The position numbers were made by a program, and so were the translations under genes. This document shows, piece by piece, positions 2 through 58,124 of a stretch of 64,000 nucleotides of DNA (the stretch's first letter is position 1; each line of letters starts with the position of its first letter). The notes under the pieces are model-generated. The model was not told the origin of the DNA. It saw nothing but the letters and a program-made list of their open reading frames with translations, and made no database searches. The stretch spans positions 704,001 through 768,000 of the forward strand of contig CAWKFG010000004.1 in the NCBI GenBank assembly GCA_963848965.1, written 5' to 3'. This stretch comes from an uncultured bacterium. GTDB taxonomy: Bacteria; Babelota; Babeliae; Babelales; Babelaceae.

Positions 2-946
2 CGCACTTATATCAGCAAGTGCTATCTGCGCTGTAGATCTTTCTAGCTCAGTGCCTCGTAAGGTTAACTCAACAGTAAAACCAAGTTCTTCATTTTTCTT
101 TTCTATAGTACGGTTATCTCTGTTAATTACCCCTTTAGGAGCAGGTTCTAGTTTGTGCTCTACTACTGAAGAAACCTTAAGTCTCTGTGGATTCCATAGA
201 TCTCTTTGTGCAGTAACAGCTAACAAGAGAGCAGGTCTACGATACTTTATTGCAGTTTCAACATTATGATAATCTCTTACATTATATATCTCTACCGTTG
301 ACCGTAAAGATGTCTTATTATGGCTTCTGAACGTAAAAGGTAATGAAAATGATCCCTGAGGTTCTACTACTGTTCTCTTTTTTGTAAGAGGATCAAAAAC
401 AACATATTCATCATTTGTTTTATTTTCTATCACTAACAATGTGCTCGCAAGAGCAGGTTTAACAGTAGAAGGTACAGATTCTTTTTGTACCTGTTGTTCT
501 TGAGCTTTAGAGAGTATCTCAGCTATAGCATGATAGCTATTTGTTTTTGCTATAGTAAGTGGAGTAAGGCCTGCATTTGACTTAATAGCTGGATTTGCTC
601 CTCGTTCTAATAAGAAACTTACCATAGGTGTATCAAATGCCATTACAGCAAAATGAAGAGGCGCTAATCCCTGAGAAGTTTGCATATTAATATCTGCTCC
701 TTTATCAAGCAAAAGTCTCGAACCTTCTTTACTTTTATGCAAAACAGCAGCAGTTAAAGGAGTGGCTCTTCCTTGATTAAATGTAAAATTTAGCTCATTA
801 GTTTGAGAAACCAGCTGCTGTATAACGCTTTCGATTCTTATAGCTTTTCCCCACGCTCCTTCAAACCGATTTTCCCAATTCTGCTCCATAGCATAAGAAG
901 AAATCATCCAAAGCGTTGCTATAAAATAAATACCCTTTTTTATCAT
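2..946 (-). CDS. Secreted ankyrin-repeat protein (partial, runs off window start)
   Basis: Not in ORF track; read manually from ATG at 946: MIKKGIYFIATLWMISSYAMEQ... with ankyrin motifs TPLTAAV..LLLDKGADIN, GLAPLHFAV..FLLERGANP, GLTPLTIA; frame appears open to the window edge. Confidence 0.85.
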   Translation of the reverse strand, partial: MIKKGIYFIATLWMISSYAMEQNWENRFEGAWGKAIRIESVIQQLVSQTNELNFTFNQGRATPLTAAVLHKSKEGSRLLLDKGADINMQTSQGLAPLHFAVMAFDTPMVSFLLERGANPAIKSNAGLTPLTIAKTNSYHAIAEILSKAQEQQVQKESVPSTVKPALASTLLVIENKTNDEYVVFDPLTKKRTVVEPQGSFSLPFTFRSHNKTSLRSTVEIYNVRDYHNVETAIKYRRPALLLAVTAQRDLWNPQRLKVSSVVEHKLEPAPKGVINRDNRTIEKKNEELGFTVELTLRGTELERSTAQIALADISA

Positions 947-1145
947 GTTACATATCCTTAATTTAATTTGTTTTTAATAAAGTATAACATATAGATTATT
1001 TTAATACAATATTGCTATTAGAATAAATAAATACAGGTGCTACAATTTTTTCTTTCTAAAAGATACGAGCAAATACTTTTATGTTACGAAAATCAATGGT
1101 ATAACTTACCAGGGAAGTGCTCTTTTATAAGCAACGAGGAAATTT

Positions 1146-1544
1146 ATGAACATTGGTGTAATAGTATCTTTAAGTATTTGTCTTACAAGCGTTTTTACCT
1201 GTATAAGCATGGAGCAACATCAAGCATTTGACCCTGAGCAAGAGTATAGACGCTTACTAGGAATAGCAAAGAATGCAACAACAGACGAAGAGTATGACAA
1301 AGCAATAGAGCACATTAACAAACTTAAAGGATCCTACACCGAAATTCTTTCTAATATGCCAAATGTAAAACACCTTCGTCCTAGCGAAGCGCGTAAGATT
1401 TACGAAGAAAAACTCAGAAAGTTTAAAGCCGCAAAAGGACCTCAAGAAGAAACAGAAGCTCGTAAAACACTTAATGATCTTATTAAAAGACATCCTGAAG
1501 TAAAAAAATTCAGAGAAGAGGTCTTAAAATCTATGAAAAAATAA
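1146..1544 (+). CDS. Small secreted helical hypothetical protein
   Basis: GAGGA RBS upstream, hydrophobic signal peptide ending CIS|MEQ, charged helical mature region. Confidence 0.75.
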   Translation: MNIGVIVSLSICLTSVFTCISMEQHQAFDPEQEYRRLLGIAKNATTDEEYDKAIEHINKLKGSYTEILSNMPNVKHLRPSEARKIYEEKLRKFKAAKGPQEETEARKTLNDLIKRHPEVKKFREEVLKSMKK

Positions 1545-1555
1545 GAAGGCGAACT

Positions 1556-1762
1556 GTGATTAAAATACTACTAACGATTCTCTATACCCTTCAGGTATTA
1601 AATTCCTATGCTATGCAGCACTCCCGTACTAGTAATGCAGATGAATTAACACATTTAGCTACGAAAATACCACATATGCCAAAATTAAAAAGCGGCCAAG
1701 GCTTGACAAATAGCAAAATAAACGGTACATTATTTAAAAAATTGCATATCGTAATTTATTAA
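1556..1762 (+). CDS. Short secreted hypothetical protein, possibly truncated
   Basis: GTG start after AAGG, signal peptide ending SYA|MQH like neighbouring genes; only 68 aa. Confidence 0.45.
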   Translation: MIKILLTILYTLQVLNSYAMQHSRTSNADELTHLATKIPHMPKLKSGQGLTNSKINGTLFKKLHIVIY

Positions 1763-12062: not shown

Positions 12063-12159
12063 CATTAGAGAGCTTAACAATGTCCCTAAACGAACAATAC
12101 ATCCTACGTATTGTTCACCCCCCTAACCCTTCAGCTTATTTAAGTTGAAGGGCTCTTTT
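12063..12159 (+). ncRNA. Candidate ~97-nt small RNA
   Basis: Follows the promoter; hairpin GAACAATAC/GTATTGTTC (12092-12116), C-rich linker, terminator hairpin 12127-12152 then CTCTTTT. Confidence 0.45.
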
Positions 12160-16160: not shown

Positions 16161-16176
16161 TTACACCAAGGAGCTT

Positions 16177-17496: not shown

Positions 17497-19344
17497 TTAC
17501 TTACCCCTTTTTTGGATAGATTCTGCAAAAATCCTATAGACTAACTTCTGTAACTTATCGTTATACTGCTTTAAGCGATCAGGAGCGATAGTAGTATAGC
17601 GTACTATCTTAACACCACTACCTGGACTTAAAAGCATATCGCTTGTAAGCAATAGACGAACTTGAAGCCTATTGATGTTTGGTATAGCTGCTGGAGCTGT
17701 TCTAAATTGTTTTAAAACTTCAGAAACAGTACCATGAACAGTTAAAGCATCCTTAGGATTCTTATCAAGCAATTTCCAGAATGCTTCCATTCTATGCTGT
17801 TTATCAATATCTCTATTAAAGAGGTATCCAAGTGCAAGAGGATTACCATGTGGTGCTCCCCAGCTACGTGCAAAGTATGCATATTTATCTACCACTGAAA
17901 GCGGTATAAAAATCTGTGCTATAGCACCATGATCTTTTACCATATCAGCAAGTTCAGAGAGCTCTTTAGCATATGATGCTGGTAATTTAAGGAGTCCAAG
18001 CATCTGTTCGGTAAGTGCTTTAATTTTAAGAGCGCCACCATGAGACTTTTGCTTTACAAAATAATCAAAAGTACATTCACTTGAAACACCTACATTTCCA
18101 AAGAGCGCAAGATTTGCTGCAATCACAAATGCTCGTACACTTTTTAGACTGTCATCAATCTGTGTATTTTTATCAAGTTCATTTTCAATAAAATCTTTGA
18201 CTGACTTATAGGTATTAAAAAGAGGATCTCCAGGGAATCTTAATAATTCAAACTCAGACATTGGATCAGTTAGAGGATAGAAAAGCTTATAAAAAGCTTT
18301 ATAAATATCTTGCAATACAAAATACTCAACATCATAAGCATGATAAAATGCCGCATAAGGCTCTTTCAGCATCTCTCTTTCTTTAGCAATTATAGCATTA
18401 ATAAGGTCACGATGCTGCGCTACCTCTTTATCGTAAGTTATTCTTACATGATCTTTAATCATTGGTATACTTAAATGTGCCTCTGATTGAGAAAATGTAC
18501 TTTGAGGATGTGTAATCGTTTCCTTATAATATATAGGAAGATAGTTAAGAAGTTCTTGGTAAACTTGTTTTCCTATTTTGCGCACATCATACCGCTTATA
18601 AGGTACAACCTTTTGCATAGGATGAGGCTTCTTAAGTTCAGGAAGACCAAAATAGTTATGCACTGTATCTACTTTATCTGCGCCCTTTGTATCAGCAGCA
18701 CCTATTAAAATAGCCATTCTTAAAAGAGCAATATCAACAGTACCATTACGATACCCAGCCTCTTGTGCAAGGTCTCTTAATTTATCAAGAAAAATCTTAA
18801 AAGTCTTTAATTTAGGATGCCCTTCAGCAATTCCCTTAACAATTATTCCACCAAAATCCCAGTGAACTCCTGTAAGAATAGCAACTACCTTACGCTCTTC
18901 TTCAGAGAGCTTTAACTCTTTGAACAATGCATTAAAATCAAATTGTTTAAGCGTCGAATCAATAAAGTATGGTCGCTTATTAAGAAGATATTCAAACCCA
19001 GCACGAGGATGATATTTCTTAGAGTCATACTTCAATTTTAAATCGCCTGCTTTGCCTATATCGTGAAGCAATCCAGCAAGTATTGTTACTTTTTTCCAAG
19101 AATGAGCTAATCCCTTTACCCAAAAACTGTCTCTACGCCACCATTCTTCTACAGCATTTGCTACCCATGAAGAATGCTCATACAGATCACCTGAGTGAGA
19201 GCAACAATTAGTCGTCTTATATACTTTAAAGTTCTCAAGAAGACTCATAAGTGTCGGATATTTGTGAGTAGCTTTTTCTTTCTGCATCGCCTCTGCTGAA
19301 CAGAACAGAATTACTATCGCTCCTATCTTTACAAACCATTTCAT
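17497..19344 (-). CDS. Secreted HD-domain protein fused to an uncharacterised (ART-like?) domain
   Basis: Signal peptide AEA|MQK; HD motifs LYEHS, LAGLLHDIGK, HPRAG, VHWD, GAAD; C-terminal half paralogous to 19360-20478. Confidence 0.75.
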   Translation of the reverse strand: MKWFVKIGAIVILFCSAEAMQKEKATHKYPTLMSLLENFKVYKTTNCCSHSGDLYEHSSWVANAVEEWWRRDSFWVKGLAHSWKKVTILAGLLHDIGKAGDLKLKYDSKKYHPRAGFEYLLNKRPYFIDSTLKQFDFNALFKELKLSEEERKVVAILTGVHWDFGGIIVKGIAEGHPKLKTFKIFLDKLRDLAQEAGYRNGTVDIALLRMAILIGAADTKGADKVDTVHNYFGLPELKKPHPMQKVVPYKRYDVRKIGKQVYQELLNYLPIYYKETITHPQSTFSQSEAHLSIPMIKDHVRITYDKEVAQHRDLINAIIAKEREMLKEPYAAFYHAYDVEYFVLQDIYKAFYKLFYPLTDPMSEFELLRFPGDPLFNTYKSVKDFIENELDKNTQIDDSLKSVRAFVIAANLALFGNVGVSSECTFDYFVKQKSHGGALKIKALTEQMLGLLKLPASYAKELSELADMVKDHGAIAQIFIPLSVVDKYAYFARSWGAPHGNPLALGYLFNRDIDKQHRMEAFWKLLDKNPKDALTVHGTVSEVLKQFRTAPAAIPNINRLQVRLLLTSDMLLSPGSGVKIVRYTTIAPDRLKQYNDKLQKLVYRIFAESIQKRGK

Positions 19345-20789: not shown

Positions 20790-22568
20790 ATGCTTATACG
20801 ATTAAAAATTAGTTACTTTGCTTTTGTGCTTTCGCTCATGAGCAGCATCTCTGGGATGCATAATGGCTACATTCCTTATGCATATGATGAAAAAAACCAC
20901 GATTGGTATATGCTTCTGTTTCAAGAGCAAGGGTTATTATGGAATGCACTTACTTGCCAAGAAGCAAAAGAAAAAGGAGGCAAAATACTTGAAGAAAAAT
21001 TCAAAATGCTTACTCATAAGGCATTTGAAAAACCTCTCGATGCCTACAAAATAAAGACATATTCTTTAGAAGATAAAGCATCTGCTCTTTCTTTTGTGCA
21101 CTATCAGTATTTACCAGAATCCCAGGTTTTACGCACGTCAAATCCTCACTATAATTTTGTTCGAATAAGTTTTAAAAAACTTTTAAAGACATTAGAAAAA
21201 GAACAAAACACCGTTAAAGCAAAGAGCAAAACGTTTAAGAACATAGAGCTTGATCCATCTTTTTTCATTGCTCTTAAGTCAGCGCAACCTTTTTTACAAG
21301 CTCTTTGTTCTTTTAGCCCAGATCAGCAAAAACCCTTCTCATTTAAGAAGTGGAGTATTCCTTTTCTTCATACTGTTGAACGAGCAAAAGACGTAAAATC
21401 TTCAGATATTTCAGCTCAAGAATTTATCGCTACCTTAGAGCAGTCTCTTGCGCTTTTTACAAACGAACTTGAGAGAGGCACCTGGTTACGTGAAAAACCA
21501 GATAAAACACAATCGTTTAAGCCTTATGTACAAAAAGTTATTATACCTGCTAAAAGTACTCTTGTTCTGTGGGGAGATCTTCATGGCAGCGCTCATTCAC
21601 TTATAAGATCATTACAAGCTCTTACAGAGATGAATGTTTTAGATGATACTCTTAAATTGAAAGAAGGATGGTATTGCTGTTTTTTAGGAGATCTTATTGA
21701 TAGAGCTCATTACGGTGTTGAACTTCTCTATCTTCTTATGAAATTAAAGCTCAGAAATCCACAACAAGTATTTTTCGCTCGCGGTAATCATGATAGTTAC
21801 CATTTTAATCATCTCTTTCATAGCTCTGCTAAAACACGCTTTCAAGAAGAGATAAAAGCAAAGTTTCCTCATCAAGCTCATCTTGATAAACTTGCTTACT
21901 CACTCTTTGAGTATTTTCCTTTAGCACTTTATATTGGCTCAGGAAGTAAGCCTATTAATTTTATTCAATGCTGCCATGGTGCACTTGAATTAGGATTTAA
22001 TCCTCAAGAGTTTTTATCGAGCAATAAAGATTTTCAAAGTATTACATCTATTGATCGAGCACATGCTCTCAGCTCTTTAAAAAATGAGCTAGCAAAAGAG
22101 ATAACACGTGTTATTGATAAAAAACGGCTTTGCAAGTTTGTTCCTACAGATCTTATTACCCCTTTAAAAGACAAACCTGCTCATCACGGACTTAAAATAG
22201 GATTTACTTGGCATGAATTTATCCCTCATGATGCAACTACGGTAGTTGATGCAGTTTCAGAAAGCAAAGCTGATAGAGAAATTGTCTATGGTAAACCCCT
22301 TGTTCAACATCTTCTTAAGCTTTATAGCTCTGATACTCATATTCTTCGAGCTATATTTAGAGGACACCAGCATCATGATACTATGCTCGCTCGACTTAAA
22401 GAGAAAAAGGGACTTGTAGAGTTCTGGGATGGGACTGTCTATACTCTTTTTTCTGGCACTGCAAGCGTCGCTCACCATAAATTTCCTTATGATGCGTTTA
22501 CTATGGTAGAAACTGCCGAAGATTACAAAGATTGGCACATATGTCAGTGGTCACAAGAGATTTTATAA
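20790..22568 (+). CDS. Secreted calcineurin-like (PPP family) metallophosphoesterase
   Basis: WGDLHG, LGDLIDR, RGNHD, CCHG, RGHQH; signal peptide ISG|MHN; about 240-aa N-terminal extension. Confidence 0.85.
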   Translation: MLIRLKISYFAFVLSLMSSISGMHNGYIPYAYDEKNHDWYMLLFQEQGLLWNALTCQEAKEKGGKILEEKFKMLTHKAFEKPLDAYKIKTYSLEDKASALSFVHYQYLPESQVLRTSNPHYNFVRISFKKLLKTLEKEQNTVKAKSKTFKNIELDPSFFIALKSAQPFLQALCSFSPDQQKPFSFKKWSIPFLHTVERAKDVKSSDISAQEFIATLEQSLALFTNELERGTWLREKPDKTQSFKPYVQKVIIPAKSTLVLWGDLHGSAHSLIRSLQALTEMNVLDDTLKLKEGWYCCFLGDLIDRAHYGVELLYLLMKLKLRNPQQVFFARGNHDSYHFNHLFHSSAKTRFQEEIKAKFPHQAHLDKLAYSLFEYFPLALYIGSGSKPINFIQCCHGALELGFNPQEFLSSNKDFQSITSIDRAHALSSLKNELAKEITRVIDKKRLCKFVPTDLITPLKDKPAHHGLKIGFTWHEFIPHDATTVVDAVSESKADREIVYGKPLVQHLLKLYSSDTHILRAIFRGHQHHDTMLARLKEKKGLVEFWDGTVYTLFSGTASVAHHKFPYDAFTMVETAEDYKDWHICQWSQEIL

Positions 22569-22831: not shown

Positions 22832-25800
22832 ATGCTTCTTTATCATTGGATAGTGCTTGTTACCTGTGCTATAGCTCCTTTATATGGAATGAAAAGAGAT
22901 ACGCCAGATGAAATCGATAACGATAAAGTTACAAAGGAAATAAAACTAGAGCAAGATACTCTTAACCAAGAACTTTTTAAAGTGCTTGAACAAGAACAAG
23001 AAGAAATAGCATGCTCTACTATACGCAAGCTTATCCAAAGAGGGGCTAATACTAATGCATATAATGCTCAAGGAGATACACCCTTAATAGTTGCGATAAA
23101 AAAAGGATACAAAGACCTTATAATGCTTCTCCTTGCCAAAGGAGCAGAGAACAACAACAATAGCAAAAATGAATCTCCCTTAATGTATGCAGTCTATCAG
23201 GGACATATAGGATTAGTATATGCCCTTATAGAGGCAAGTACCGACAAACAAGCAGCAGAGCAAGACGCTTTATGTGCAGCAGCAAAAAGCAATCAAATAG
23301 CGCTTTTAAAATCGCTTATAGACAATGGTATCTCTATTAACAAACAGAATGCTCTAACAGGTGCCACTGCATTGATAATTGCTGCAAGTAAAGGATATAA
23401 AGAGGCTGTAGACCATCTATTGGCACATGGAGCAGACTGCACTCTAAAACTTAAAGATGGGAACTCTGCTTTAACTTTAGCTGCACAAGCGGGGCATAAA
23501 GAAATAGTTTTTACACTTTTAGATAAATGGCCTTCTGAAAGCAAAAATCAAATTCTTATTTCAGCTTTATTGTCCGCCTCTTATACAAAGCAAGAAGATC
23601 TTGTAGAATTACTTATTAAAAGGTCATCCAACAAAGCAGAAGCATTAGATATAGTTCTTGCAGGAGCAGCTTCTGGGGGGCATCTTTCATTTGTTACCAA
23701 ACTTATTATTCAAGGTCCATCACTAGAAGCACGTGATCATGCTCTTGTAGCAGCAGCAAAGAATGGTCATCAAGAAGTAGTTCAAAAACTCTTAGAATCT
23801 GGAGCCCGTAGTAATGCACAACTTAGTAATGGGTTTACTGCACTAACAGCAGCTATTACTGGGGGACACAAGCAGATTGCACTTTTTCTTTTAGACCAAG
23901 GAGCATATCCTTGTCTTCAAAACAATAAAGGGCCGCTCCCTTTAGTACGTGCTACACAAAGGGGATACAGTGATGTAGTTATTCAGCTCATAAAAAAAGG
24001 GGCTAAGGTTTCTGAACAAGAACCAACAACTGGCACTACTGCGCTTTTAGAAGCTATAAAACATAGAAATGAAGAAATTATTCAGATACTTCTAGCACAT
24101 AAAGTGGACTACGCTCAAAAAGATAAAGCAGGAAATAACGCCCTTTCTTTGGCAGCACAACTCGGGAATATGACTCTTGTAAATATTTTTGTTGAGCTTT
24201 ATGAAGATAAAGATGAAGCATATAAAATCGTCGTAATGGGAGCCATCTGTGGTGAACAGCAGCATGTTTTAGAAAAATTCTTAAAAAATATTCACATCGA
24301 TGCTCTTTTACCAAATGGATATACCCCGCTTAAATTCGCTGCTTATAAAGGAAGTAAAGACTGTGTAAAATTAATACTTGATAATGGTGCTGATATTGAT
24401 AAGGCAGAAGAAATAAATAGAACCGCTCTTATGTATGCAGCTCAACAAGGTCACAAAGAGACTGTTGCTTTTCTTTTAGAGCATAATGCACAGCATACTA
24501 TAGGCACTCCTGGTCAACAGGCTCTTAATTTTGCCGCTGCAGCAGGACATGAAGACATCGTAGATATGCTTATCAATAAAGAAGCTAACAAAGATAAAGC
24601 ACGAGAAAGTGCATTTATAAGTGCTGCTAGAGGTGGAAAAAAAAACCTTCTCTCTAAATTCTTATTATTTCCCATCTCTCAAGCAATAAAAGATACAGCT
24701 CTCTTCAATGCAGCATCTTCTGGATTTAAAGATGTAGTACAAATACTTTTTGAAGCAGGTGCTTATGTAGATGCTAACTCAAGAGGAGAGTCTGCACTTA
24801 TTAGTGCTCTAAAAATCGGCCACAAAGAAGTAGCGGAGTTACTTATACAATTAGGAGCCTCTGTTAATGGCCAGAATTCGTTTGGACAAACTTCTTTAAT
24901 GCACGCAGTACAAAGAAATTTTTCAGACCTCGTATCCCTTCTGCTAAAAAAGGGAGCTAATATTAATGCTAGGGATAGGCATGGGGATACTGCTATAATG
25001 AAAGCGGCCGCACATGGCTTTGAAGATATGGTATTACTTCTTTTAAGTAAAAGTAATGACCATCACACAGCATGTAATGATGCTTTTCTAAGTGCTGCAA
25101 GCACTGGTCACCTTTCATTAACGACAACACTTTTAAAAAATGATATTACAGGAGAAGCTAAAAAAAATGCTTTAATAAAAGCAGTAGCAAGTGGTCATCA
25201 AGAAATAGTTACAATGCTTCTTGAAAGACATGTTGCCATCAATACTCAAGATACAGAAGGTAACTCGCTTGTTATGATCGCATGTAATCATAAGAAGAAA
25301 GAAATTGTACAACTTCTTATCAAGGCTGGCGCTCCTCTTAACCTTGTAAATGATGGTGGTGAAAGAGTCCATACAGCAGCAGTTAGAAGCGGTTCTAAAG
25401 AGCTAGTAGAACTACTTTTAACTCATGATACGTGCCTTTACACAAATGATAACGAACGTATTGCTATTTTACTTGATGCTATTTCTTCAAATTCCTTAGA
25501 ATTAATACAGTTTTTATTACCATACATAGGTACTGTTAATGTCCCTGAAGGTTCAGAAGATGTACCCCTTATCAATGCAGCTCGCTCTAAAAATTTAGAG
25601 ATAGTAAAACTCCTCTTAGAACAAGGCGCTCTCGTTAATACACGTAATAATAAAGGTAATACAGCTCTCCATATAGCTGCAAAAAATGGCAATTTTGAAC
25701 TTGTAAAACTATTGGTAGAAAGGGGTGCAGAAGTTAATGCACAAAATAAGAAGGGTTATACGGCTCTTACAAGTTTTACAAGACAGCATGAATTTACAGA

Positions 25801-27979
25801 TATAGCACTATTCCTTTTAGCCAATGGAGCACAAGCTACGTTACCTAATAAAGATGAACGTACTGTTCTCCATCATCTAGCTTTTAAGAAAGATGAAAAT
25901 AGTACCCAGCTTTCTCAACTTGTAAAAGAGCTTCTGCTCTCAGGTGTTTCTATTAATGCTCAAGATAGTACTGGTGCTACACCACTTATGCTTGCAGCAC
26001 AGCAAGAAAATGAGGCAATAGTAAATCTTTTTTTACAAAATGGTGCTACCTGCACTAATGAAGACAACAATAAGAGGAGCTCTTTAACGTTAGCAGCAAA
26101 AGCTGGCTGTTATAGCATAGTAGAAATGCTTCTTAAACAGATGAAAGAACATTCACAACTTATAAAGTCTCAATTAGATGCTTCTTTACTTGTAGCTGCT
26201 AAATATGGATATAGCGCTATTGTTAAACTTCTTTTGCATTATGGTGCATATAAAGATGCACAGAAATCTTATGGCTCTACATCACTTCTTTTAGCAGCTC
26301 AAAATAATCATAGTGATGTGGTAGAGATACTTCTGAATCATGGTGCTACTATGGAAATAAGAAATAAACAAAACTGGGATCCACTAACCCGGGCAGCAGC
26401 CGATGGGCACTTAGATATAGCAATAAAGCTTTTAGATGCAAGCAAAAATAGAGAAGAAGCCCTTAATAATGCACTACTTAATGCAGCATGGAACGGTCAA
26501 ATACCCATTGTTAATAAACTTATAGAGTTGGGTGCTCCGCCTTCACTCAGAGAAGACGCTCTTTTGCGACGCGCAGGAGATAGAAATGGATTTACGGTAG
26601 TACAACTACTTATAGAAGCAGGAGCTCATATTAACTCTACCAATCGCGCAGGACAAACGGCCCTTATGATAGCTGCTAAAAGTGGATGTACTGAAACAGT
26701 AAAATACCTTGTAGAAAAAGGTGCAGCAATAGAACTCTTAAGTTTTAATGGTAAAACAGCACTTATCTTAGCATCAGAAGCTGGACATAAAGACATAGAA
26801 ACGTATCTTGTTGAAAGATATGAAAACAGAGAGGCTGCAGTTAGTGAGCTGCTATTAGGTGCAAGCAAAAGAGGTGATGAAGAGGCTGTTCAACAACTCT
26901 TGCAACTTGGTGCAAATATTGAAGTAAGAACACACAGAGGTACTCCTTTAATTTTTGCTGTTAAAAATAAGCATATAGGGCTCGTACGCATTCTTTTAAA
27001 AAATAAAGCCTTAGTAAATGCTCGCGATAATAATGGCAAAACTGCGTTAATATATGCAATAGAAAGCAACTCAAAAGAGCTCATAAAACTTCTTTTAGAT
27101 GCAGGTGCAGATCTACGGACCTTAGATAATGCTCAAAATACTCCTTTACATACTGCTGCATCTACTGGTTCTAGAGAGATGGTAGATTTCCTTATAGAAA
27201 AAGGAGCACAAGTAAACGTCACAAATATAACAAGACAAAGCCCTCAAACACTAGCTATTGAGAATGGTCATGTAGCACTTATAGGCAAATTATTAAGTGC
27301 ATCAACTTTACCTGTTGCCACTTTAGCAGAAGATGCTCATCTTACTAACAAATTAAGTACAGCAGTTATTCACTATCTTACCTCTGATAAGGCTACACGT
27401 TTTATAAAAATGTACCAAAAAGAGCAGTATGAAGAGCTAGGAGTATTAGCAGATATACTACAGTTTCGAAATATAAACAATTATCTCAAAAATCCTGTAC
27501 ACTACATAGAACAAATGCTTACGAACAAATTGTATAAAGAAGATCTTAATCAAACAGCCTTAATGTGGGCATGTATATTTGATCATACAAACATTGTTGA
27601 AACACTTGTATCAGCAAAAGAGCTTCCTTCAGGATATATTCATGCTCGAGATTGCAGAGGAAGAACAGCACTTATGTACGCTCTTATCTACAGAAATAGT
27701 GCTTGTGCGTACACGCTCATCCCTCATTGTGCTAAAGAAATTGATGCCCAAGATAGAGAGGGTAACACTGCTTTGAGTTTAGCTGCTCAATATGGCAACA
27801 AAGAGCTTATTAATCTTCTTTTAGCAGCTGGTGCTCGCCCTTCAGTACGAGCTATAAAACGAGCAGCAGAGCTGGGACACACCCAAATAGCAGTTAAGCT
27901 TCTTGCTCTCATGAGTGAATATGCACGAGGACACGCCTACCAAGGATTACCTGGTTGTTTTCCTGCCCTTTTTAAATAG
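22832..27979 (+). CDS. Giant secreted ankyrin-repeat protein (1715 aa)
   Basis: Dozens of G.T(A/P)L..AA..GH..V..LL..GA repeats; signal peptide LYG|MKR. Confidence 0.93.
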   Translation: MLLYHWIVLVTCAIAPLYGMKRDTPDEIDNDKVTKEIKLEQDTLNQELFKVLEQEQEEIACSTIRKLIQRGANTNAYNAQGDTPLIVAIKKGYKDLIMLLLAKGAENNNNSKNESPLMYAVYQGHIGLVYALIEASTDKQAAEQDALCAAAKSNQIALLKSLIDNGISINKQNALTGATALIIAASKGYKEAVDHLLAHGADCTLKLKDGNSALTLAAQAGHKEIVFTLLDKWPSESKNQILISALLSASYTKQEDLVELLIKRSSNKAEALDIVLAGAASGGHLSFVTKLIIQGPSLEARDHALVAAAKNGHQEVVQKLLESGARSNAQLSNGFTALTAAITGGHKQIALFLLDQGAYPCLQNNKGPLPLVRATQRGYSDVVIQLIKKGAKVSEQEPTTGTTALLEAIKHRNEEIIQILLAHKVDYAQKDKAGNNALSLAAQLGNMTLVNIFVELYEDKDEAYKIVVMGAICGEQQHVLEKFLKNIHIDALLPNGYTPLKFAAYKGSKDCVKLILDNGADIDKAEEINRTALMYAAQQGHKETVAFLLEHNAQHTIGTPGQQALNFAAAAGHEDIVDMLINKEANKDKARESAFISAARGGKKNLLSKFLLFPISQAIKDTALFNAASSGFKDVVQILFEAGAYVDANSRGESALISALKIGHKEVAELLIQLGASVNGQNSFGQTSLMHAVQRNFSDLVSLLLKKGANINARDRHGDTAIMKAAAHGFEDMVLLLLSKSNDHHTACNDAFLSAASTGHLSLTTTLLKNDITGEAKKNALIKAVASGHQEIVTMLLERHVAINTQDTEGNSLVMIACNHKKKEIVQLLIKAGAPLNLVNDGGERVHTAAVRSGSKELVELLLTHDTCLYTNDNERIAILLDAISSNSLELIQFLLPYIGTVNVPEGSEDVPLINAARSKNLEIVKLLLEQGALVNTRNNKGNTALHIAAKNGNFELVKLLVERGAEVNAQNKKGYTALTSFTRQHEFTDIALFLLANGAQATLPNKDERTVLHHLAFKKDENSTQLSQLVKELLLSGVSINAQDSTGATPLMLAAQQENEAIVNLFLQNGATCTNEDNNKRSSLTLAAKAGCYSIVEMLLKQMKEHSQLIKSQLDASLLVAAKYGYSAIVKLLLHYGAYKDAQKSYGSTSLLLAAQNNHSDVVEILLNHGATMEIRNKQNWDPLTRAAADGHLDIAIKLLDASKNREEALNNALLNAAWNGQIPIVNKLIELGAPPSLREDALLRRAGDRNGFTVVQLLIEAGAHINSTNRAGQTALMIAAKSGCTETVKYLVEKGAAIELLSFNGKTALILASEAGHKDIETYLVERYENREAAVSELLLGASKRGDEEAVQQLLQLGANIEVRTHRGTPLIFAVKNKHIGLVRILLKNKALVNARDNNGKTALIYAIESNSKELIKLLLDAGADLRTLDNAQNTPLHTAASTGSREMVDFLIEKGAQVNVTNITRQSPQTLAIENGHVALIGKLLSASTLPVATLAEDAHLTNKLSTAVIHYLTSDKATRFIKMYQKEQYEELGVLADILQFRNINNYLKNPVHYIEQMLTNKLYKEDLNQTALMWACIFDHTNIVETLVSAKELPSGYIHARDCRGRTALMYALIYRNSACAYTLIPHCAKEIDAQDREGNTALSLAAQYGNKELINLLLAAGARPSVRAIKRAAELGHTQIAVKLLALMSEYARGHAYQGLPGCFPALFK

Positions 27980-39477: not shown

Positions 39478-40287
39478 CTACTTCTTTAGTCTATCTTCGT
39501 GCTCTTTAATAAGCCTTTCTGCTTTTCCATAGAGCTCGCTTATTTTTCTAAATCGATCTGCCATTTGCCGCGCTTGATCACCTGCTTTATAAACAGTCGG
39601 GTCTTCAGCAATCGAATACTCAAGCTGTACACCTGCATCTAAAAGCATTTTCAATACTTCTAAAGATTTTTCATCACCAGACTTGCTAATATTCATCAAT
39701 GTATAAAACATAATAGGTGGTGTATTTTTATCATATTTGATAGTACGTGGTTCAGCACCAGCATCAATATATTTTTTTATCTCTTTACCATCACCAAATT
39801 TTACTGCATCCATGAGCCGTTCATTCAGCTGATCTTTTGTAAATTGTGAAAGATCCGTTGGCCCTTCTAGTATTTCTTTGAGTTTTTCAATAAATTTTTC
39901 TTTTGGCATAAAACCAACAAGCTTGCCAATTACTTTCCCCATTTTAATGACTGCAAAAGTAGGAATACTATCAATTTCAAGCTTTTGAGCTAGTTCTTGC
40001 TCTTTTTCAGTATCAATTTTGGCAAATGCATAATCTTTGCTAAACTCCTGGGCTACCTCTTCAAAGATAGGAGCCATCATTTTGCAAGGAGGACACTGAT
40101 CTCCAAAACAATCTACGACCATAATTCCTGGAAACTCCAACATCAAAGCTCGCTCTTTGGTAATCTCAATTATAGGCGATGGAGCTTTTGCTGTTAATTT
40201 TACATCCTCAGAAGCTTCTTTTTCCATTGCTCTTACACCTACAGCAGAACAGCATAATACAACTAATAAAAAGAAATATTTTGTCAT
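39478..40287 (-). CDS. Secreted thioredoxin with C-terminal ankyrin-like region
   Basis: QCPPCKMMAPIFEE, IDSIPTF; C-terminal LMDAVKFGD..YIDAGA and MLLDAGV; signal peptide VRA|MEK. Confidence 0.8.
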   Translation of the reverse strand: MTKYFFLLVVLCCSAVGVRAMEKEASEDVKLTAKAPSPIIEITKERALMLEFPGIMVVDCFGDQCPPCKMMAPIFEEVAQEFSKDYAFAKIDTEKEQELAQKLEIDSIPTFAVIKMGKVIGKLVGFMPKEKFIEKLKEILEGPTDLSQFTKDQLNERLMDAVKFGDGKEIKKYIDAGAEPRTIKYDKNTPPIMFYTLMNISKSGDEKSLEVLKMLLDAGVQLEYSIAEDPTVYKAGDQARQMADRFRKISELYGKAERLIKEHEDRLKK

Positions 40288-46951: not shown

Positions 46952-47323
46952 ATGCTACATAGATATATTTTATTAGCAACTATAATAACCTTCCTCTTTT
47001 CTCTTAATGCTATGTATAATAAAGAAAATAACTCTCCACTAGCAAACGGTGTAAACTTTCACTCCGTGTGTGGTAATCCAGAAGGATATGTTTTCAGAGG
47101 ACATTATCAAAACAAATTGTCATTCGATTCTCCGCTTGCAGATGGCGGACGTTTGGTAGTAACAAAAGTTGTACGAGGAGATCATGAAGGCGATATAGAA
47201 GCGAAAGTATACCCTTCCAATAGTACAGCGTATGCTCTTCCACTATCCGTAGCTCTCTGGTGCTTTAATCTTTTATCAAAACGATTTTATCAACAATCAA
47301 GCAATATTGTAGAGAAGGCATAA
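46952..47323 (+). CDS. Small secreted hypothetical protein (paralog of 50072-50383)
   Basis: GGGGG RBS, signal peptide LNA|MYN; shares CG.P.GYV.RG..Q.KLS.DS.LA.GGR..VTKVVRG and KRFYQQSSNIVEKA with the paralog. Confidence 0.8.
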   Translation: MLHRYILLATIITFLFSLNAMYNKENNSPLANGVNFHSVCGNPEGYVFRGHYQNKLSFDSPLADGGRLVVTKVVRGDHEGDIEAKVYPSNSTAYALPLSVALWCFNLLSKRFYQQSSNIVEKA

Positions 47324-47750
47324 ACTCAGACATAAGTATTCATGCACTTTTCTCTTAGTACTTATCACAGATACGAAAGTTGTTAACAGATAAGCTCTTG
47401 AGCGTAATTTCTTTCTGCTCAAGAGCCTTTCAAGTAGCAATGTCCAACTCTCTAACTTCTTCAGATACTGTTATAGTGCCTTAATATACAAAGATAACCA
47501 TTAAATCCATTATATTATGTAGTATATTTGCTAATAAACGAATTATGTTATATTATAATATAAAATATTTATTAAAATTAAAAATAAAGGCACAGAATGC
47601 TTAAAATAATACTGCTTATAACCCTTATGACACTCAACTTTTTTAGTTACACAATGGAAGAACAGCAATTAAGTTCTCCTCAATCTACTAATACTACCTC
47701 TCTTCAAGAGCAGGAAGTACAAAGACTATTATCTTTTTTACGCCAGTCGG
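46990..47750 (+). repeat. Diverged segmental duplication, copy A
   Basis: Small gene, GCTCTTGAGC/GCTCAAGAGC hairpin, AT-rich promoter region and MLKIILLI gene start are all repeated at about 50049-50835. Confidence 0.8.
47394..47426 (+). terminator. Hairpin terminator
   Basis: GCTCTTGAGC-N13-GCTCAAGAGC; the same stem with a different loop occurs at 50454-50494. Confidence 0.6.
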
Positions 47751-47974
47751 AAGATGAAGATAGAGCCATTTTAGGTTTACATAGTACACGATCTACTTTA
47801 CTCAATATACTACCGCACCTTTCTGCTAACACAGAAATAGATCCTTTAGAAAAGGGGTACATCTTTAGTTCAACATCTACGTATTCTATGGGCAAAAGTA
47901 CTATGCCTGCTCCCGCTTCACCATTATCAGAAGAACAAGGTAAGCGTAAAGAAACCAAGCAAGAAGGTAAATAA
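47597..47974 (+). CDS. Short secreted Ser-rich protein, paralog of the N-terminus of 50675-52684
   Basis: MLKIILLI..YT|MEE..SSP..QEVQRL..L.QS shared with the 669-aa ankyrin protein. Confidence 0.65.
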   Translation: MLKIILLITLMTLNFFSYTMEEQQLSSPQSTNTTSLQEQEVQRLLSFLRQSEDEDRAILGLHSTRSTLLNILPHLSANTEIDPLEKGYIFSSTSTYSMGKSTMPAPASPLSEEQGKRKETKQEGK

Positions 47975-49658: not shown

Positions 49659-49675
49659 GTGGTAATAGACCGCTC

Positions 49676-50016: not shown

Positions 50017-50027
50017 TTAACTTTGTT

Positions 50028-50056
50028 AAAAAGCTATATATCAGCCTTCCTCCTTC
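50028..50056 (+). repeat. Exact 29-bp direct repeat, copy 1
   Basis: AAAAAGCTATATATCAGCCTTCCTCCTTC, identical to 52692-52720. Confidence 0.9.
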
Positions 50057-50835
50057 TTTTCTCTTAATGCCATGTATGATAATACACATAGCACTTCTTT
50101 ACTACACGATACCTTTTTTTATATCTTGTGTGGACGCCCGGTAGGGTATGTCTACAGAGGTGAGCTTCAAAGTAAGCTTTCATATGATTCTCAACTTGCA
50201 TTAGGGGGACGTGTAATAGTAACTAAGGTTGTCCGAGGAAGTCGCGAAGGTGAAACAGAAGCAAAAATATACCCATCTATGGGCAATAACTTTGCTTTAC
50301 CGTCCTTTCTTGCTCGCTGGTGCTTTGGTCTTCTAGCAAAACGATTTTACCAACAATCAAGTAATATAGTAGAAAAGGCATAAGCTCAAACTATCTATGA
50401 GAGCTCATACATTTTTCTCTTAGTACCTATCAAAAATATGACAACTCTTAACAAAAAGCTCTTGAGCATAGAATGATTACGCTCAAGAGCTTTTCAAGTA
50501 ATAGCGTTTCAGGTCTATAGCTACATTCTTTTACTTTTTCAGACCCTGGTATAGTTTCTTGATGTACAAAAATAACTAGTAATCCATTATAGTACCCAAC
50601 ATACTTGCCAATAAATAAATTATATTATAATATAACATAAAATAGTCATTAAAATTTATGAACAAAGGTACCGAATGCTTAAAATAATTTTACTTATAAA
50701 CCTTGTGCTCATAGGTTTCTCTATTTATACAATGGAGAAAGAACAATCACCAAGCTCTCCTCATCTTACTATTCCTGTAAGCTCACAAGAATGGCAGGAG
50801 GTACAAAGGCTTATCTTCCTATTAAACCAATCAAT
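50049..50835 (+). repeat. Diverged segmental duplication, copy B
   Basis: Homologous to about 46990-47750. Confidence 0.8.
50072..50383 (+). CDS. Paralog of 46952-47323 lacking most of its signal peptide (possibly a pseudogene)
   Basis: Upstream in-frame FSLNA is retained, but homology breaks at the 29-bp repeat and there is an in-frame TAA at 50027. Confidence 0.6.
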   Translation: MYDNTHSTSLLHDTFFYILCGRPVGYVYRGELQSKLSYDSQLALGGRVIVTKVVRGSREGETEAKIYPSMGNNFALPSFLARWCFGLLAKRFYQQSSNIVEKA

Positions 50836-52684
50836 TACTGCTCCTTTAATGCAAGAACAATCAATTAATCAAGAGATAACCAGTAATAGAGGTACCTGTG
50901 CGGCAGAGTCTCAAAGTAGTATACAGCTTGAACAGGAAGAAAGCTCTTCAAGCTCAGCACATAGCCTGACCGGCCCTTATTTTCCAATATCAGCTGCGCT
51001 TGAAAGAGGTAATTCAGGAGGACCAATAATATCTACAAGCGGTTATGTAAGTGGAACAGTACAAGATGATAGAGATTGTAGCTTCCTTCCCTTGATTGAC
51101 ACGGAACCTTATAGTACAAATTCTCAAAACGAAGATCATCCACCGGTCGGTGACAATAGACTAGCAGGTGATAATATTAGTACCCTCACTATTCCGCTTA
51201 GAACAGTTAGAGCACCACAACCGTCACCGATAAACGGAACTTTTCAGTATTTTATTGAGTCTACTGTACATCCTCTTGAAGTTACTGGCCGTATAGAAAA
51301 AAAAGATAAGATAAAGCCTACTTTTTCTATATGTTTTGATGATCATAGTGCCTTTCTTGCTCCAAATGCTACAATTTCTGAAGGAGCAGATCGTAGAAAA
51401 CAGGCCCAAGCAAGGATGGCTCTTACCCTCAAGCAATTAGAAGAAAAAGAAAGCCAAGAAAGAGTCCAAAAGCTTCTTAAGCTAAATTGTAAAGTGATAC
51501 CTTTTGGTAATACACCTGCAAATTTACTTTCACTTGTCATTATTAAGCTTGCTCAAATAGACAAACCAGACGAGCTACAATCGTTACCAAAAGAACTACA
51601 AGATGCAATTAGTACCTTTAAACAGGTTCTAGGAGATAAGAGACATAATCTCCTTAAAGCCATTGATTGTCAGCAATTCAGCATGCCTCTTGTAGAAGCA
51701 CTTATTATCGCAACCCCTGTTCTAAAACGAGAAGTGCTCATTAAACAAATCATCGAAAAAGCAGCTTATAACGCAGATATACCTCTCCTTTCTTTTTTTA
51801 AAGAAAAAGGAATTGATCTCTCTTTACACCGATCCCATAGGCTTGGCAACTCTCTTTTGCATATAGTATGTACCTCGCCAAGCACTAAAGCTCTTGAATC
51901 CATAGCCTTCCTACTTAACCATAAGATCGATATTAATGGCAAAGCTAAGGATGGCGCGACAGCTCTTCGTAGAGCGATAGAGGCTAGTAAAACAAGTATT
52001 GTAGAATATCTTTTAGCACATGGAGCAAGCATACAGACCAAAGATGTTCAAGGTAAAACTGTTCTACATCATGCAATAAACAAAGGACATAAAGAAATAG
52101 TAGACTTACTTATAGCTCATGGCGCTGATGTTAACGCTCAGGATAATAATAACAATACGCCTCTACATTCTCTTGCTGAAGCATTTCCTCTATCAGAAGG
52201 ACATAGCACTATAGTAAAATGCCTTTTAGATCATAAAGCTGATGTTACTATAAAAAACAGGCGCGGCCATACTCCTTTAACATTAGCACGCATAAATGGT
52301 GGAGCATGGCACAGCTCGCGCTCTACTTTGTTTAAAATAATGGCTATTCTAAAAGAATATGCTAAGCAATTAGGCCAGAAAGACGCTGAAAAACAAGAAA
52401 GTTTAACAGAAAGTTTTCTTAATGCAGCAGAAACGGGCAATATAGAAGCATTAAAGAGGCTACAAAACAAAGTATCTGTTAATAGCAAAGGAAAACAAGG
52501 CAATACTGCTCTTATGGTAGCAGCTCGTGCTGGCCGTACTGAGACAGTTCTTTATCTGTTAAGTCAAAAAGCAGATGTTTCGCTCACTAACGTATTTCAT
52601 GAAACTGTTGCTGTTTTAGCGCGCCAAACAGGTCAGCATCACATTGCTTACATAATTGAGAATGGTGTTATGAAACATTTATAA
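50675..52684 (+). CDS. Secreted ankyrin-repeat protein with disordered N-terminus and SOCS-box-like motif
   Basis: Signal peptide IYT|MEK; Ser/Gln-rich region; ankyrin repeats in the C-terminal half (GATALRRA, GKTVLHHA, NTPLH, GNTALMVAA). Confidence 0.88.
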   Translation: MLKIILLINLVLIGFSIYTMEKEQSPSSPHLTIPVSSQEWQEVQRLIFLLNQSITAPLMQEQSINQEITSNRGTCAAESQSSIQLEQEESSSSSAHSLTGPYFPISAALERGNSGGPIISTSGYVSGTVQDDRDCSFLPLIDTEPYSTNSQNEDHPPVGDNRLAGDNISTLTIPLRTVRAPQPSPINGTFQYFIESTVHPLEVTGRIEKKDKIKPTFSICFDDHSAFLAPNATISEGADRRKQAQARMALTLKQLEEKESQERVQKLLKLNCKVIPFGNTPANLLSLVIIKLAQIDKPDELQSLPKELQDAISTFKQVLGDKRHNLLKAIDCQQFSMPLVEALIIATPVLKREVLIKQIIEKAAYNADIPLLSFFKEKGIDLSLHRSHRLGNSLLHIVCTSPSTKALESIAFLLNHKIDINGKAKDGATALRRAIEASKTSIVEYLLAHGASIQTKDVQGKTVLHHAINKGHKEIVDLLIAHGADVNAQDNNNNTPLHSLAEAFPLSEGHSTIVKCLLDHKADVTIKNRRGHTPLTLARINGGAWHSSRSTLFKIMAILKEYAKQLGQKDAEKQESLTESFLNAAETGNIEALKRLQNKVSVNSKGKQGNTALMVAARAGRTETVLYLLSQKADVSLTNVFHETVAVLARQTGQHHIAYIIENGVMKHL

Positions 52685-56092: not shown

Positions 56093-56333
56093 CAATTCTC
56101 CGCCAAATAGCACAATAAGATCTTATCTTAAGTATGGCACAAGTATGCAAAAAATGAAGTATACTTCTCTATAACCCTTCTGCTATACTAATTATTATTC
56201 ATACATTGCCTTTTAAATTTATTTTAATTTTTTAATTAATAGTAGCACTAAATAAAAAGTAATGTCAACGATTCTTTCCCTGGGATTAAGACAGCAATAG
56301 AGCAAGTTCCTTTTTCTTTATTAAAAGACGCTC

Positions 56334-58124
56334 TCAATCTATAGATTCTAAAAAGATACGTCCTTTTCTACATTCTTTGCTGAGTAAAGCTCGTTGTAAA
56401 TAGCCTTCTTGTGCTTTATCAACAGCTGTTTTTTCTTCATTATCCTTAAGATATATATCTGCTCCTGCATCTATAAGCATATCTATACATTCTATATGCC
56501 TGTGCTTTATTGCATACATAAGCGCTGTATTACCTTGTGCATCTTGCTTATTTATATCTACTTTTAAAGTTATAAGCTTTTCTAGCACTTCTTTGTGACC
56601 TGCAGTTGCTGCATACATGAGTAATGTTTTCCCTTTTTCATCTACAATAGTATCAATAGCATTCTTTAATCTTGTTACTGCTTGCTGTAAGCATACATAC
56701 TTATGTTCTTGCCAATCCTTTCTTTGGCACTCTTGTGAACAGTATTTTACTTTCCTGCAAAGAGAACATTTATAGAACTTCTTTTTATCTTGCTTACACG
56801 TATAGCAGCACCCTATCTTTCTTTGCTCTTCTTTTACAGCTAGTATCTGTTGTGTATTTTGTGCTTTTTGGATAAGAAGAGTTACTATTTCTTTATGATT
56901 TTTCTTTACTGCATATATTATGGCAGTCAAGCCATTTTTATCTTGCGCATTACTATCTGCGCCTGCAGTTAAAAGTTTCTCTACGATTTCTTTATAGCCA
57001 TTACCTGCAGCAATCATTAAAGCAGTAACATTAGCATTTGTTTTAGTATTAGGAGCAGCATTACAAGCTAAAAGCAATTCTACTATATTTTTATAATTAT
57101 TTGCAGCAGCATACATTAAAGCAGTCCAACCATTATCAGTTTGAGCATTAATATCCGCTTTGTGTGCTAAAAGGATTTTCATTATTTCATTACAACCATT
57201 TTGGGCAGCAAAGAGCACAGGAGTCCACCCATTATTACTTTGAGCATTAACATCTGCTCCTGCATTTATAAGTATTTCTACTATCTTCTTGTGTTTCCAA
57301 TCTACAGCCAACATTAAGGGAGTCCCATGATTATGAGCCTTAGCATTACTATCGGCACCATGATTTATAAGTAATTGTACTATTTCTTCATGTCCTATTT
57401 CTGTAACCCAATGTAAGGCTGTATTACCATTATTATCTTGAGCAGTAACATCAGCACCGTGAGCTAAAAGCACCTCTACTACTTTCTTATGCCCTCCCTT
57501 TGAAGCTATAATTAAGGCAGTCCTTCTGAGTCTATCTTGAGTATCAATAAGAGCACCAGCTTGCAAAAGCATTTCTACTATTTCTTCATATCCACTGAGT
57601 GCAGCAAATAGCAGTGCAGTACCATCATCACTTTTAATATTAGTATCAGCGTTATAAGATAAAAGTATTTCTACGATTTCTTTATGACCGGCAAGTACAG
57701 CACATAGTAAGGCGGTACAATTTTTATAATTTCTAGCATTAATGTCAGCTCCTGCAGCTAACAACATTCTTACTATTTCTACATCTCCATACTGAGCAGC
57801 AATCATCAAAGGCGTCCACCCGCTCTTACTCTTAGCATTGACACAAGCATTGTGAGCTAAAAGTGCTAATATTGCTGACTTATGCCTTTTAATTACAGTA
57901 ATCATTAAAGCAGTTCTATCATCACCACCAGTGCGCGCATCAACAGCAACCCCTTTCTTTAAAAGCTTTTTGAGCTGCCCTACATTTCCCTCTTCACTAG
58001 CAATAAAAAATTTAGAAGTTAACGATACATGTTCAGCAGCCATGGGACCACTTTTCTCTTTTTGCATAGCTAAGGATGTAAAGGACACAAGAATGCTTAG
58101 TAAAAGTAATTTTCTATAATTCAT
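56334..58124 (-). CDS. Secreted ankyrin-repeat protein with MYND zinc finger
   Basis: Regular ankyrin repeats interrupted by CYTC...CSLCRKVKYCSQECQRKDWQEHKYVC; signal peptide SLA|MQK; start at ATG 58124. Confidence 0.92.
   Translation of the reverse strand: MNYRKLLLLSILVSFTSLAMQKEKSGPMAAEHVSLTSKFFIASEEGNVGQLKKLLKKGVAVDARTGGDDRTALMITVIKRHKSAILALLAHNACVNAKSKSGWTPLMIAAQYGDVEIVRMLLAAGADINARNYKNCTALLCAVLAGHKEIVEILLSYNADTNIKSDDGTALLFAALSGYEEIVEMLLQAGALIDTQDRLRRTALIIASKGGHKKVVEVLLAHGADVTAQDNNGNTALHWVTEIGHEEIVQLLINHGADSNAKAHNHGTPLMLAVDWKHKKIVEILINAGADVNAQSNNGWTPVLFAAQNGCNEIMKILLAHKADINAQTDNGWTALMYAAANNYKNIVELLLACNAAPNTKTNANVTALMIAAGNGYKEIVEKLLTAGADSNAQDKNGLTAIIYAVKKNHKEIVTLLIQKAQNTQQILAVKEEQRKIGCCYTCKQDKKKFYKCSLCRKVKYCSQECQRKDWQEHKYVCLQQAVTRLKNAIDTIVDEKGKTLLMYAATAGHKEVLEKLITLKVDINKQDAQGNTALMYAIKHRHIECIDMLIDAGADIYLKDNEEKTAVDKAQEGYLQRALLSKECRKGRIFLESID

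Follow-up and report, generated by a model that had tools for sequence, protein, structure and literature searches.

Methionine directly follows the predicted signal peptide in twelve exported proteins encoded in a 64-kb stretch of a Babelaceae genome

How a bacterium that exports a very large share of its proteome through Sec parts its host-directed proteins from those of its envelope, and how the former survive in the host, are questions posed by the Dependentiae, which are widespread, mostly uncultured parasites of protists. Both questions are raised by a 64,000-nucleotide stretch of DNA from an uncultured member of the Babelaceae (NCBI GenBank assembly GCA_963848965.1, contig CAWKFG010000004.1, positions 704,001 to 768,000 of the forward strand; hereafter the window, with a G+C content of ~36%). 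Twelve of its genes encode a Sec-type leader that is followed directly by methionine, and all twelve of these N-termini, reported in a preliminary description of the stretch, are confirmed in the sequence. They are given below with window coordinates and strand, leader length in amino acids (aa), the position of the codon for the Met at +1, i.e. the first residue after the predicted cleavage site, and the residues on either side of that site (|).

2..946, −: ankyrin protein (Ank_2, E=2e-12) with its 3′ end beyond the window edge; leader 19 aa; +1 Met codon 889-887, SYA|MEQ; Shine-Dalgarno (SD)-like AAGGA before the first ATG
1146..1544, +: exported protein of 132 aa, no Pfam family at E<=0.001; leader 21 aa; +1 Met codon 1209, CIS|MEQ
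1556..1762, +: open reading frame (ORF) of 68 aa, initiated at GTG and perhaps a decayed gene; leader 19 aa; +1 Met codon 1613, SYA|MQH
17497..19344, −: HD-domain protein, 615 aa; leader 19 aa; +1 Met codon 19287, AEA|MQK
20790..22568, +: calcineurin-like phosphoesterase, 592 aa; leader 22 aa; +1 Met codon 20856, ISG|MHN
22832..27979, +: ankyrin protein, 1715 aa; leader 19 aa; +1 Met codon 22889, LYG|MKR
28069..31569, −: ankyrin protein, 1166 aa; leader 22 aa; +1 Met codon 31503, NYG|MKR
39478..40287, −: thioredoxin-domain protein, 269 aa; leader 20 aa; +1 Met codon 40227, VRA|MEK
46952..47323, +: exported protein of 123 aa, family unassigned; leader 20 aa; +1 Met codon 47012, LNA|MYN
47597..47974, +: exported protein of 125 aa; leader 19 aa; +1 Met codon 47654, SYT|MEE
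50675..52684, +: ankyrin protein, 669 aa; leader 19 aa; +1 Met codon 50732, IYT|MEK
56334..58124, −: ankyrin and zf-MYND protein, 596 aa; leader 19 aa; +1 Met codon 58067, SLA|MQK

The preliminary description had placed all six ankyrin proteins of the window in this set. Every ankyrin protein recognised by Pfam does belong to it, although there are five of these (one with a zf-MYND finger) rather than six. The C-terminal 120 residues of the thioredoxin-domain protein are weakly ankyrin-like (E=0.04 against a window ankyrin protein), with no Pfam Ank match at E<=1. The zf-MYND finger (E=1.8e-10), which is typically a eukaryotic domain, is embedded within the ankyrin protein at 56334-58124.

The leaders have the organization expected of signal peptidase I substrates as far as can be read from sequence, with a short neutral or positive N-region, an uncharged hydrophobic core of ~8–15 residues, small uncharged residues at −1 and −3 and Pro absent between −3 and +1. 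All twelve are 19–22 aa long and end in a small residue (Ala in six, Gly in three, Thr in two and Ser in one), and in no window gene does the boundary Met follow any other type of −1 residue. The −3 position is occupied by Ser, Ile, Leu, Cys, Ala or Val in eleven and by an unusual Asn in the twelfth (28069..31569), and Lys or Arg is present in the N-region of ten, 1146 and 22832 having neither. The leaders are not of the lipoprotein type processed by signal peptidase II, as Cys is at +1 in none of the twelve and Met in all. Type IV prepilin leaders are short and charged, end in Gly and have their hydrophobic segment downstream of the cleavage position, whereas here the hydrophobic segment precedes the site and hydrophilic sequence follows the Met. 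An NCBIfam scan of the window proteins for curated N-terminal signal domains gave none.

A scan of all ORFs of at least 45 aa on both strands for a hydrophobic leader, a small residue, Met and a hydrophilic stretch yielded just the twelve genes, two of them also from alternative upstream starts, plus four spurious hits that lie within another gene or out of frame (20863-20887, 44265/44268 in secG, 46218(−), and 58434 in a MoxR gene). Met follows 12 of the 21 cleavable-looking leaders in the window, the non-Met set having been judged by eye, and about six further hydrophobic N-termini resemble membrane anchors. The nine cleavable-looking leaders without Met belong to the following genes.

5452: DUF4097 protein
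6641-8104, −: leader-bearing protein
12158-12436, −: PilP-like protein
19360-20478, −: leader-bearing protein
31794: GSDH-like propeller
40440: WD40 protein (Pfam)
46033-46719, −: leader-bearing protein
52935: leader-bearing protein
60526: GspD

Chance does not explain the abundance of Met at +1. It constitutes 1.64% of residues, giving a probability of 2e-16 for at least 12 of 22, and this is still 2.5e-7 when 10% per protein is granted. A crude cleavage rule that is blind to +1 (it uses the −3 and −1 residues and a drop in hydropathy, and admits false positives in both sets) assigns Met to +1 in 9 of 24 leader-like N-termini of the window and in 1 of 197 of an outgroup (Fisher p=4.2e-9), the latter comprising 79 loci of other phyla from the best 80 ClpB-anchored loci (ClpB <=59% identical). 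This rule cuts immediately before the Met in nine of the twelve genes and 3–5 residues upstream in two ankyrin proteins (31569, by 5 residues, and 50675); the 68-aa ORF is below its length filter. An earlier, stricter leader filter that missed half of the twelve gave 6/16 in the window and 3/62 in the outgroup, and Met was not enriched over the 10 positions that follow the hydrophobic core (0.021 vs 0.021) under a core definition that often swallowed the Met itself.

The boundary Met codon could in principle be a second functional start, from which a cytoplasmic isoform with the sequence of the mature protein would be made, or the leader might be untranslated, both of which the preliminary description had allowed for. 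Predicted pairing with the anti-SD sequence was compared for the twelve first ATGs, the twelve inner ATGs, 25 other genes and all 1028 + strand ATGs. The mean before the first ATGs (−5.2 kcal/mol) is similar to that of the 25 other genes (−6.0), and the mean before the inner ATGs (−1.3) is that of the background (−1.34); values of −4 kcal/mol or stronger occur at 7/12 first ATGs, 1/12 inner ATGs and 20/25 real genes. Among first starts the extremes are 46952..47323 with a strong SD (−10.7 kcal/mol) and 56334..58124 with the weakest (−0.4 kcal/mol). A −10-like hexamer at the spacing of a leaderless transcript precedes 1/12 inner ATGs, compared to 13% of all ATGs. The HD and thioredoxin proteins carry the identical upstream start in the public protein set, and within the coding part of a duplicated pair of leaders (47597 and 50675, below) all indels are of 3 nucleotides (nt). 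The leaders are thus translated from the upstream ATG, and the ribosome-binding site sought at the internal ATG is at background level. An additional start there is the least probable of the explanations weighed here. It fits the in-frame position of the inner ATG, the A-rich codons that follow it in several genes and the large residue after the Met (below), as retention of Met would hold equally for an isoform made in the bacterial cytoplasm. However, it lacks both an SD and a properly spaced −10 element and gives no reason for the small −1 residue in all twelve genes; at 6641-8104 the place of the Met is taken by a Val encoded by GTT, which is not a start codon, and cytoplasmic ankyrin proteins have no evident use in a bacterium.

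The boundary Met is conserved in relatives of several of these proteins. The thioredoxin family has three members among 5.8 billion proteins, and A|ME is invariant in all three (60% and 46% identity), amid divergence and indels in the leader before it and the linker after it. Fourteen proteins match the HD protein and the N-terminal region aligns in five, with the boundary residue being Met in the window protein, Met (81% identity), Val (61%), Met after a Pro (42%) and Val (41%). The phosphoesterase family is larger, and the best 150 representatives of 4036 matches were compared. A representative at 77% identity keeps G|MHN, and Met is the commonest predicted +1 residue among the 99 of these 150 that bear a leader, being present in 12 (p=1e-5 vs the outgroup); inspection by eye finds 18 Met-type sequences among the same 150. 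On a FastTree phylogeny of 148 of them (two of >1000 aa being omitted) the 18 Met-type rows call for at least 13 changes, a purely descriptive count, which indicates that the Met state is scattered and not inherited from one ancestor. The ankyrin proteins have 7121 generic matches from all domains of life; the best 120 include neither the window protein nor a close ortholog, and 8 of the 120 have a leader followed by Met when judged by eye (4 of 40 leader-like by heuristic). Such ankyrin proteins therefore exist elsewhere, and six of the eight read Met-Lys-Arg as do the two large ankyrin proteins of the window.

The residue after the Met (+2) is also biased. The pooled Met-type set has 42 sequences (12 from the window, 12 homologs of the ankyrin, HD and thioredoxin proteins and 18 phosphoesterases) that include orthologs and paralogs and are not independent. 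Small residues of the kind that permit removal of Met by Met-aminopeptidase (G, A, S, T, C, P, V) occupy +2 in 2/42, compared to 28/87 at the same position of non-Met phosphoesterases (p=3e-4); within the phosphoesterase family alone the counts are 1/12 and 28/87 (p=0.17), such that only the pooled comparison is significant. Asp, Glu, Asn or Gln is present in 24/42 and Lys, Arg or His in 12/42.

Tyr is frequent at −2, in 6/12 window genes and 15/42 pooled Met-type sequences. It is also found at −2 of leaders without Met, in the DUF4097 protein and in one protein of a second locus from the order, and may reflect how cleavage regions are habitually built in this lineage. The second locus (L002) is from a 'Candidatus Babeliales' genome bin and is the sole Babeliales representative among the best 80 ClpB-anchored loci, with a ClpB 67% identical to that of the window, from which membership of the Babeliales, a group of intracellular protist parasites, is probable for the source of the window. 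These tyrosines, together with the absence of leader|Met from L002, could suggest that the pattern is real without having a special role, reflecting a lineage quirk of signal-peptidase preference or of composition. This seems distinctly improbable, because a peptidase preference should appear in the envelope proteins also and does not, Met is 1.64% of residues, and it is conserved in orthologs. The envelope proteins of the window were indeed correctly described as lacking Met at +1, the residue there being Gln in GspD, Ala in the DUF4097 protein and Glu in both the PilP-like protein and the propeller.

The Met-type leaders are not copies of a single cassette and have independent origins. When all 66 pairs of 5′ regions were aligned, only one (47597/50675, score 80) was clearly above the range of shuffled DNA; the next-best pair scores 26 and the null maximum is 25. 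The earlier statement that most members are not homologous is accordingly right as regards the leaders, of which only this pair is shared at the DNA level. In the exceptional pair a 5′ module containing the promoter, SD, leader, Met and ~30 codons is present twice (47517-47700 and 50595-50785), with 82% identity over 261 aligned columns followed by complete divergence, and it heads two otherwise unrelated genes, those of the 125-aa protein and the 669-aa ankyrin protein. This suggests that secretion leaders are shuffled as modules. A second duplication concerns the 123-aa exported protein, which has a truncated paralog starting at the Met that corresponds to +1 of the intact copy.

50072..50383, +: truncated paralog of 46952-47323

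This paralog was considered as a leaderless twin that might preserve an ancestral start, and rejected. Just upstream of it the leader can still be traced in the DNA as its 3′ half, the 5′ half being gone, from which it is concluded that the leader was lost; ~400 bases further upstream (region 49660-50383) contain no ORF resembling the intact copy, as if DNA had been inserted or rearranged there.

The mobility of 5′ modules bears on a further possibility, that the Met is a fossil start codon left behind when genes of cytoplasmic proteins or genes obtained by horizontal transfer acquired a leader through 5′ extension or module capture. Such an origin would accord with the link between Met and eukaryote-like, presumably acquired genes, with the six ankyrin homologs reading leader|MKR (MKR being a typical bacterial start) and with some leaderless ankyrin matches that begin MKR. 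Several observations make it improbable, if slightly less so than a quirk of the lineage. Decay would be expected of a relic, but A|ME is unaltered at 46% identity amid changing flanks, and the cleavage motif that abuts the Met in all twelve genes would be left unexplained. Small second residues are common at true protein N-termini and a large share would be expected, but they are found in 2/42; in the window +2 is mostly Glu or Gln, whereas real starts of this genome are mostly MK, ML and MN. The junction of the moved module is ~35 aa past the Met and not at it, the only apparent leaderless paralog is the truncation at 50072 with half of its leader DNA remaining, and leaders are carried by nearly every member of the phosphoesterase family, across which the Met-type rows are scattered.

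The position of the Met next to the signal-peptidase motif, its conservation amid drifting flanks, its recurrence in unrelated proteins and the avoidance of small residues at +2 all point to selection on the mature N-terminus rather than to a second start or a relic. The explanation favored here, although with slightly less than even confidence, is that selection retains an N-terminal Met on host-directed Sec substrates as a host-like N-terminus free of N-degrons. These proteins would be ordinary Sec and signal peptidase I precursors, translated from the upstream ATG, on which cleavage at the predicted bond would leave Met as the first residue. The Met would be kept by selection on an exported subset of eukaryote-like and presumably host-directed proteins (the five ankyrin proteins, the thioredoxin, HD and phosphoesterase proteins and several small exported proteins), most likely acting at the mature N-terminus once they are delivered to the host cytosol, where it may lengthen their half-life.

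The known N-degron classes provide a reason for the choice of Met over the usual Ala or Ser. As summarized in a 2024 review (PMC11441550), Met-aminopeptidases remove Met if the next residue is no larger than Val; Asn, Gln, Asp and Glu are recognized after deamidation or arginylation; the GASTC pathway reads Gly, Ala, Ser, Thr and Cys; and Pro has its own pathway. Met followed by a large non-hydrophobic residue would be refractory to trimming by Met-aminopeptidase and, along with Val, would be one of very few unmodified N-termini outside known eukaryotic N-degron recognition, while every one of the customary bacterial +1 residues (A, S, T, G, D, E, Q, N, K) would be destabilizing in the host cytosol. 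In eleven of the twelve window proteins the +2 residue exceeds Val in size without being bulky hydrophobic, and Val is the only substitute for the boundary Met in the HD family, consistent with Met and Val as the recognin-free pair. Acetylation by NatB, to which the preliminary description had appealed, is not supported in that form because N-terminal acetylases are ribosome-associated, according to the same review (PMC11441550), and the Met would be exposed post-translationally.

Several points weigh against this interpretation, and some of them also show that the Met does not mark the effector set as such, which had been the original proposal. The eukaryote-like exported WD40 protein (40440) and other exported proteins, including 19360-20478 and 52935, lack the Met, and the predicted +1 residues of these three would be destabilizing. 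L002 has no leader|Met among ~9 hydrophobic N-termini, and 87 of the 99 leader-bearing phosphoesterases are not Met-type, many having Glu, Leu, Ile, Asp, Asn or Lys at the predicted +1. One window protein (46952..47323, the sole window case with a bulky hydrophobic +2) would begin with Met-Tyr, which would itself be an Arg/N-degron, and hydrophobic +2 residues occur in 5/42 of the pooled set. The cleavage sites are predicted, and for 2 of the 11 genes that it scored the crude rule places cleavage elsewhere than before the Met. The 30 homologs in the pooled set were chosen by eye for the pattern, which makes their −1 statistics circular, and three of them (P0091, P0124 and P0282) have Pro at −1 (two as Tyr-Pro and one as His-Pro); signal peptidase I should not cut after a Pro, so either the site is a few residues upstream or the Met matters in some other way. 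The GASTC and Pro branches of the N-degron pathways are described in yeast and animals and the presumed hosts here are protists, and there is no known route for a type II secretion system (T2SS) or Sec substrate from the periplasm to the host cytosol.

A bolder form of the N-degron-free interpretation, in which a Babeliales lineage uses a one-residue code with Met plus a large non-hydrophobic residue marking host-bound Sec substrates, whose N-termini would escape every eukaryotic N-degron pathway, and periplasmic residents keeping an ordinary +1, is conceivable but rather doubtful. It would, if true, be the first bacterial N-terminal rule that parts host-delivered from envelope-resident signal peptidase I substrates, and would enable prediction of effectors from sequence in a phylum with no type III or type IV secretion signal to go by.

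An alternative role within the bacterium is that Met with an acidic, amide or basic +2 residue constitutes a short sorting or processing tag, either separating proteins destined for passage through the outer membrane (by T2SS or vesicles) from periplasmic residents or directing them to a dedicated signal-peptidase paralog. This is unlikely, but ranks second behind an N-degron-free N-terminus. The adjacency to the cleavage site, the conservation and the contrast with envelope proteins fit it equally well, as does the bias toward Asp, Glu, Asn and Gln at +2 (24/42), and there is precedent in other bacteria, where lipoproteins are sorted by residues just past the cleavage site. A Dependentiae cell in which ~44% of coding sequences (CDS) specify signal peptides, as given in a genome report (PMC6561590), needs a discriminator of some kind. 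The window also contains a candidate outer-membrane route for Met-type proteins.

59387..63954, +: gspC-like gene (T2SSC, E=3.7e-7) and gspD (Secretin, E=1.4e-34)

Against a sorting tag, we know of no linear N-terminal signal in T2SS substrates, the conservation is limited to the Met and a loose preference at +2, and a tag read in the bacterium gives no reason either for the scarcity of small +2 residues or for Val as a substitute. A Pfam search of the window revealed no candidate reader protein or extra signal peptidase. The GspD protein (60526-63954) is 1142 aa long, and its first 70 residues after the leader already show an Ala-, Gln- and Pro-rich stretch of low complexity; N0, the first of its secretin-related domains, is matched only from residue 415.

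The closest known counterpart is the Q-rule of the Bacteroidetes, in which Gln at +1 of signal peptidase I substrates is cyclized to pyroglutamate; this too (PMC5837995, PMC10653852) is a lineage-specific, selected residue right after the signal peptidase I site that is thought to protect the N-terminus. The Q-rule holds for most signal peptidase I substrates across an entire phylum, and the enzyme that modifies the Gln is known, whereas here the residue is Met, concerns part of the exported set, is absent from the related Babeliales locus, implies no modifying enzyme and has a different proposed site of action. A +1 residue common to most such substrates across the lineage was not found (12/21 in the window, 0 in envelope proteins, 0/~9 in L002 and 12/99 in the phosphoesterases), and the text of PMC5837995 has no occurrence of methionine, TM6 or Dependentiae. 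If the +1 Met signature holds genome-wide, it would be a second example of a lineage tuning the residue that signal peptidase I exposes. It would also allow candidate effectors to be picked out from sequence only, and would connect the processing of bacterial signal peptides with eukaryotic N-degron pathways in a way that can be tested directly.

There are three other points of comparison. Schnupf et al. 2007 reportedly described N-end-rule degradation of Sec-secreted listeriolysin O in the host cytosol, a case said to concern one protein with a destabilizing N-terminus. It resembles the present one in that what becomes of a bacterial protein in a eukaryotic cytosol is reportedly decided by the residue left first when the signal peptide is cut off, and it differs in that here a whole set of proteins would have a predicted stabilizing N-terminus. 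Short conserved features after the signal peptide also mark effector candidates in eukaryotic pathogens, including the host-targeting motifs PEXEL and RxLR. Another is the Y/F/WxC motif of powdery mildew effector candidates, which lies directly downstream of the signal peptide (PMC2886064). These belong to eukaryotic pathways and consist of several residues away from the cleavage site, whereas the feature here is bacterial and a single residue at +1. Lastly, the report on Chromulinavorax destructans (PMC6561590), the one cultured marine member of the Dependentiae, describes an AT-rich intracellular protist parasite with signal peptides on 44% of CDS and on most ankyrin proteins, much as the ankyrin proteins here have Sec signal peptides. 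The words 'methionine' and 'N-terminal' are absent from the text of PMC6561590 and the +1 Met regularity is not described there; neither was a description found in literature, with few subscription journals covered, on Dependentiae signal peptides and ankyrins or on N-degrons and effector N-terminal Met. The Legionella Ank effector models of NCBIfam match the window proteins via the ankyrin repeats only, far under their cut-offs.

L002 has its own complement of leader-bearing proteins, none of those below having Met after the leader.

494-13879 of L002: five leader-bearing proteins with collagen-like Gly-X-Y triplets, around clpB
14795-18633 of L002, −: three tandem leader-bearing paralogs with a GD-x-H motif

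Among the other genes of the window, those for secG, mlaE/F, a pilO-like gene and the housekeeping genes clpB, tpiA and uvrC were identified by Pfam, and an Rfam search of the window gave no RNA family. Two multi-copy families, AAA-ATPase_like/PDDEXK_9 and AAA_14/DUF4143, are interspersed among the exported-protein genes, and two individual genes encode enzymes with N-terminal hydrophobic segments.

3749-5311; 42196-43866 (−); 54416-56092 (−): three AAA-ATPase_like/PDDEXK_9 genes (Pfam)
10604-11791; 16087-17421: two AAA_14/DUF4143 genes (Pfam)
35307-35843, −: RimI-like GNAT acetyltransferase with an N-terminal hydrophobic segment and then a very basic His/Lys-rich stretch
48069-49658: RPE65/carotenoid-oxygenase family protein (E=1.5e-127) with an N-terminal hydrophobic anchor

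The hydrophobic segment of the RimI-like protein looks like a membrane anchor with a cytoplasm-facing enzyme rather than a cleaved leader; a role in modifying the N-termini of the exported set would be pure speculation, as no evidence ties the GNAT to these proteins. The RPE65/carotenoid-oxygenase enzyme at 48069-49658 is unusual for a metabolically reduced parasite.

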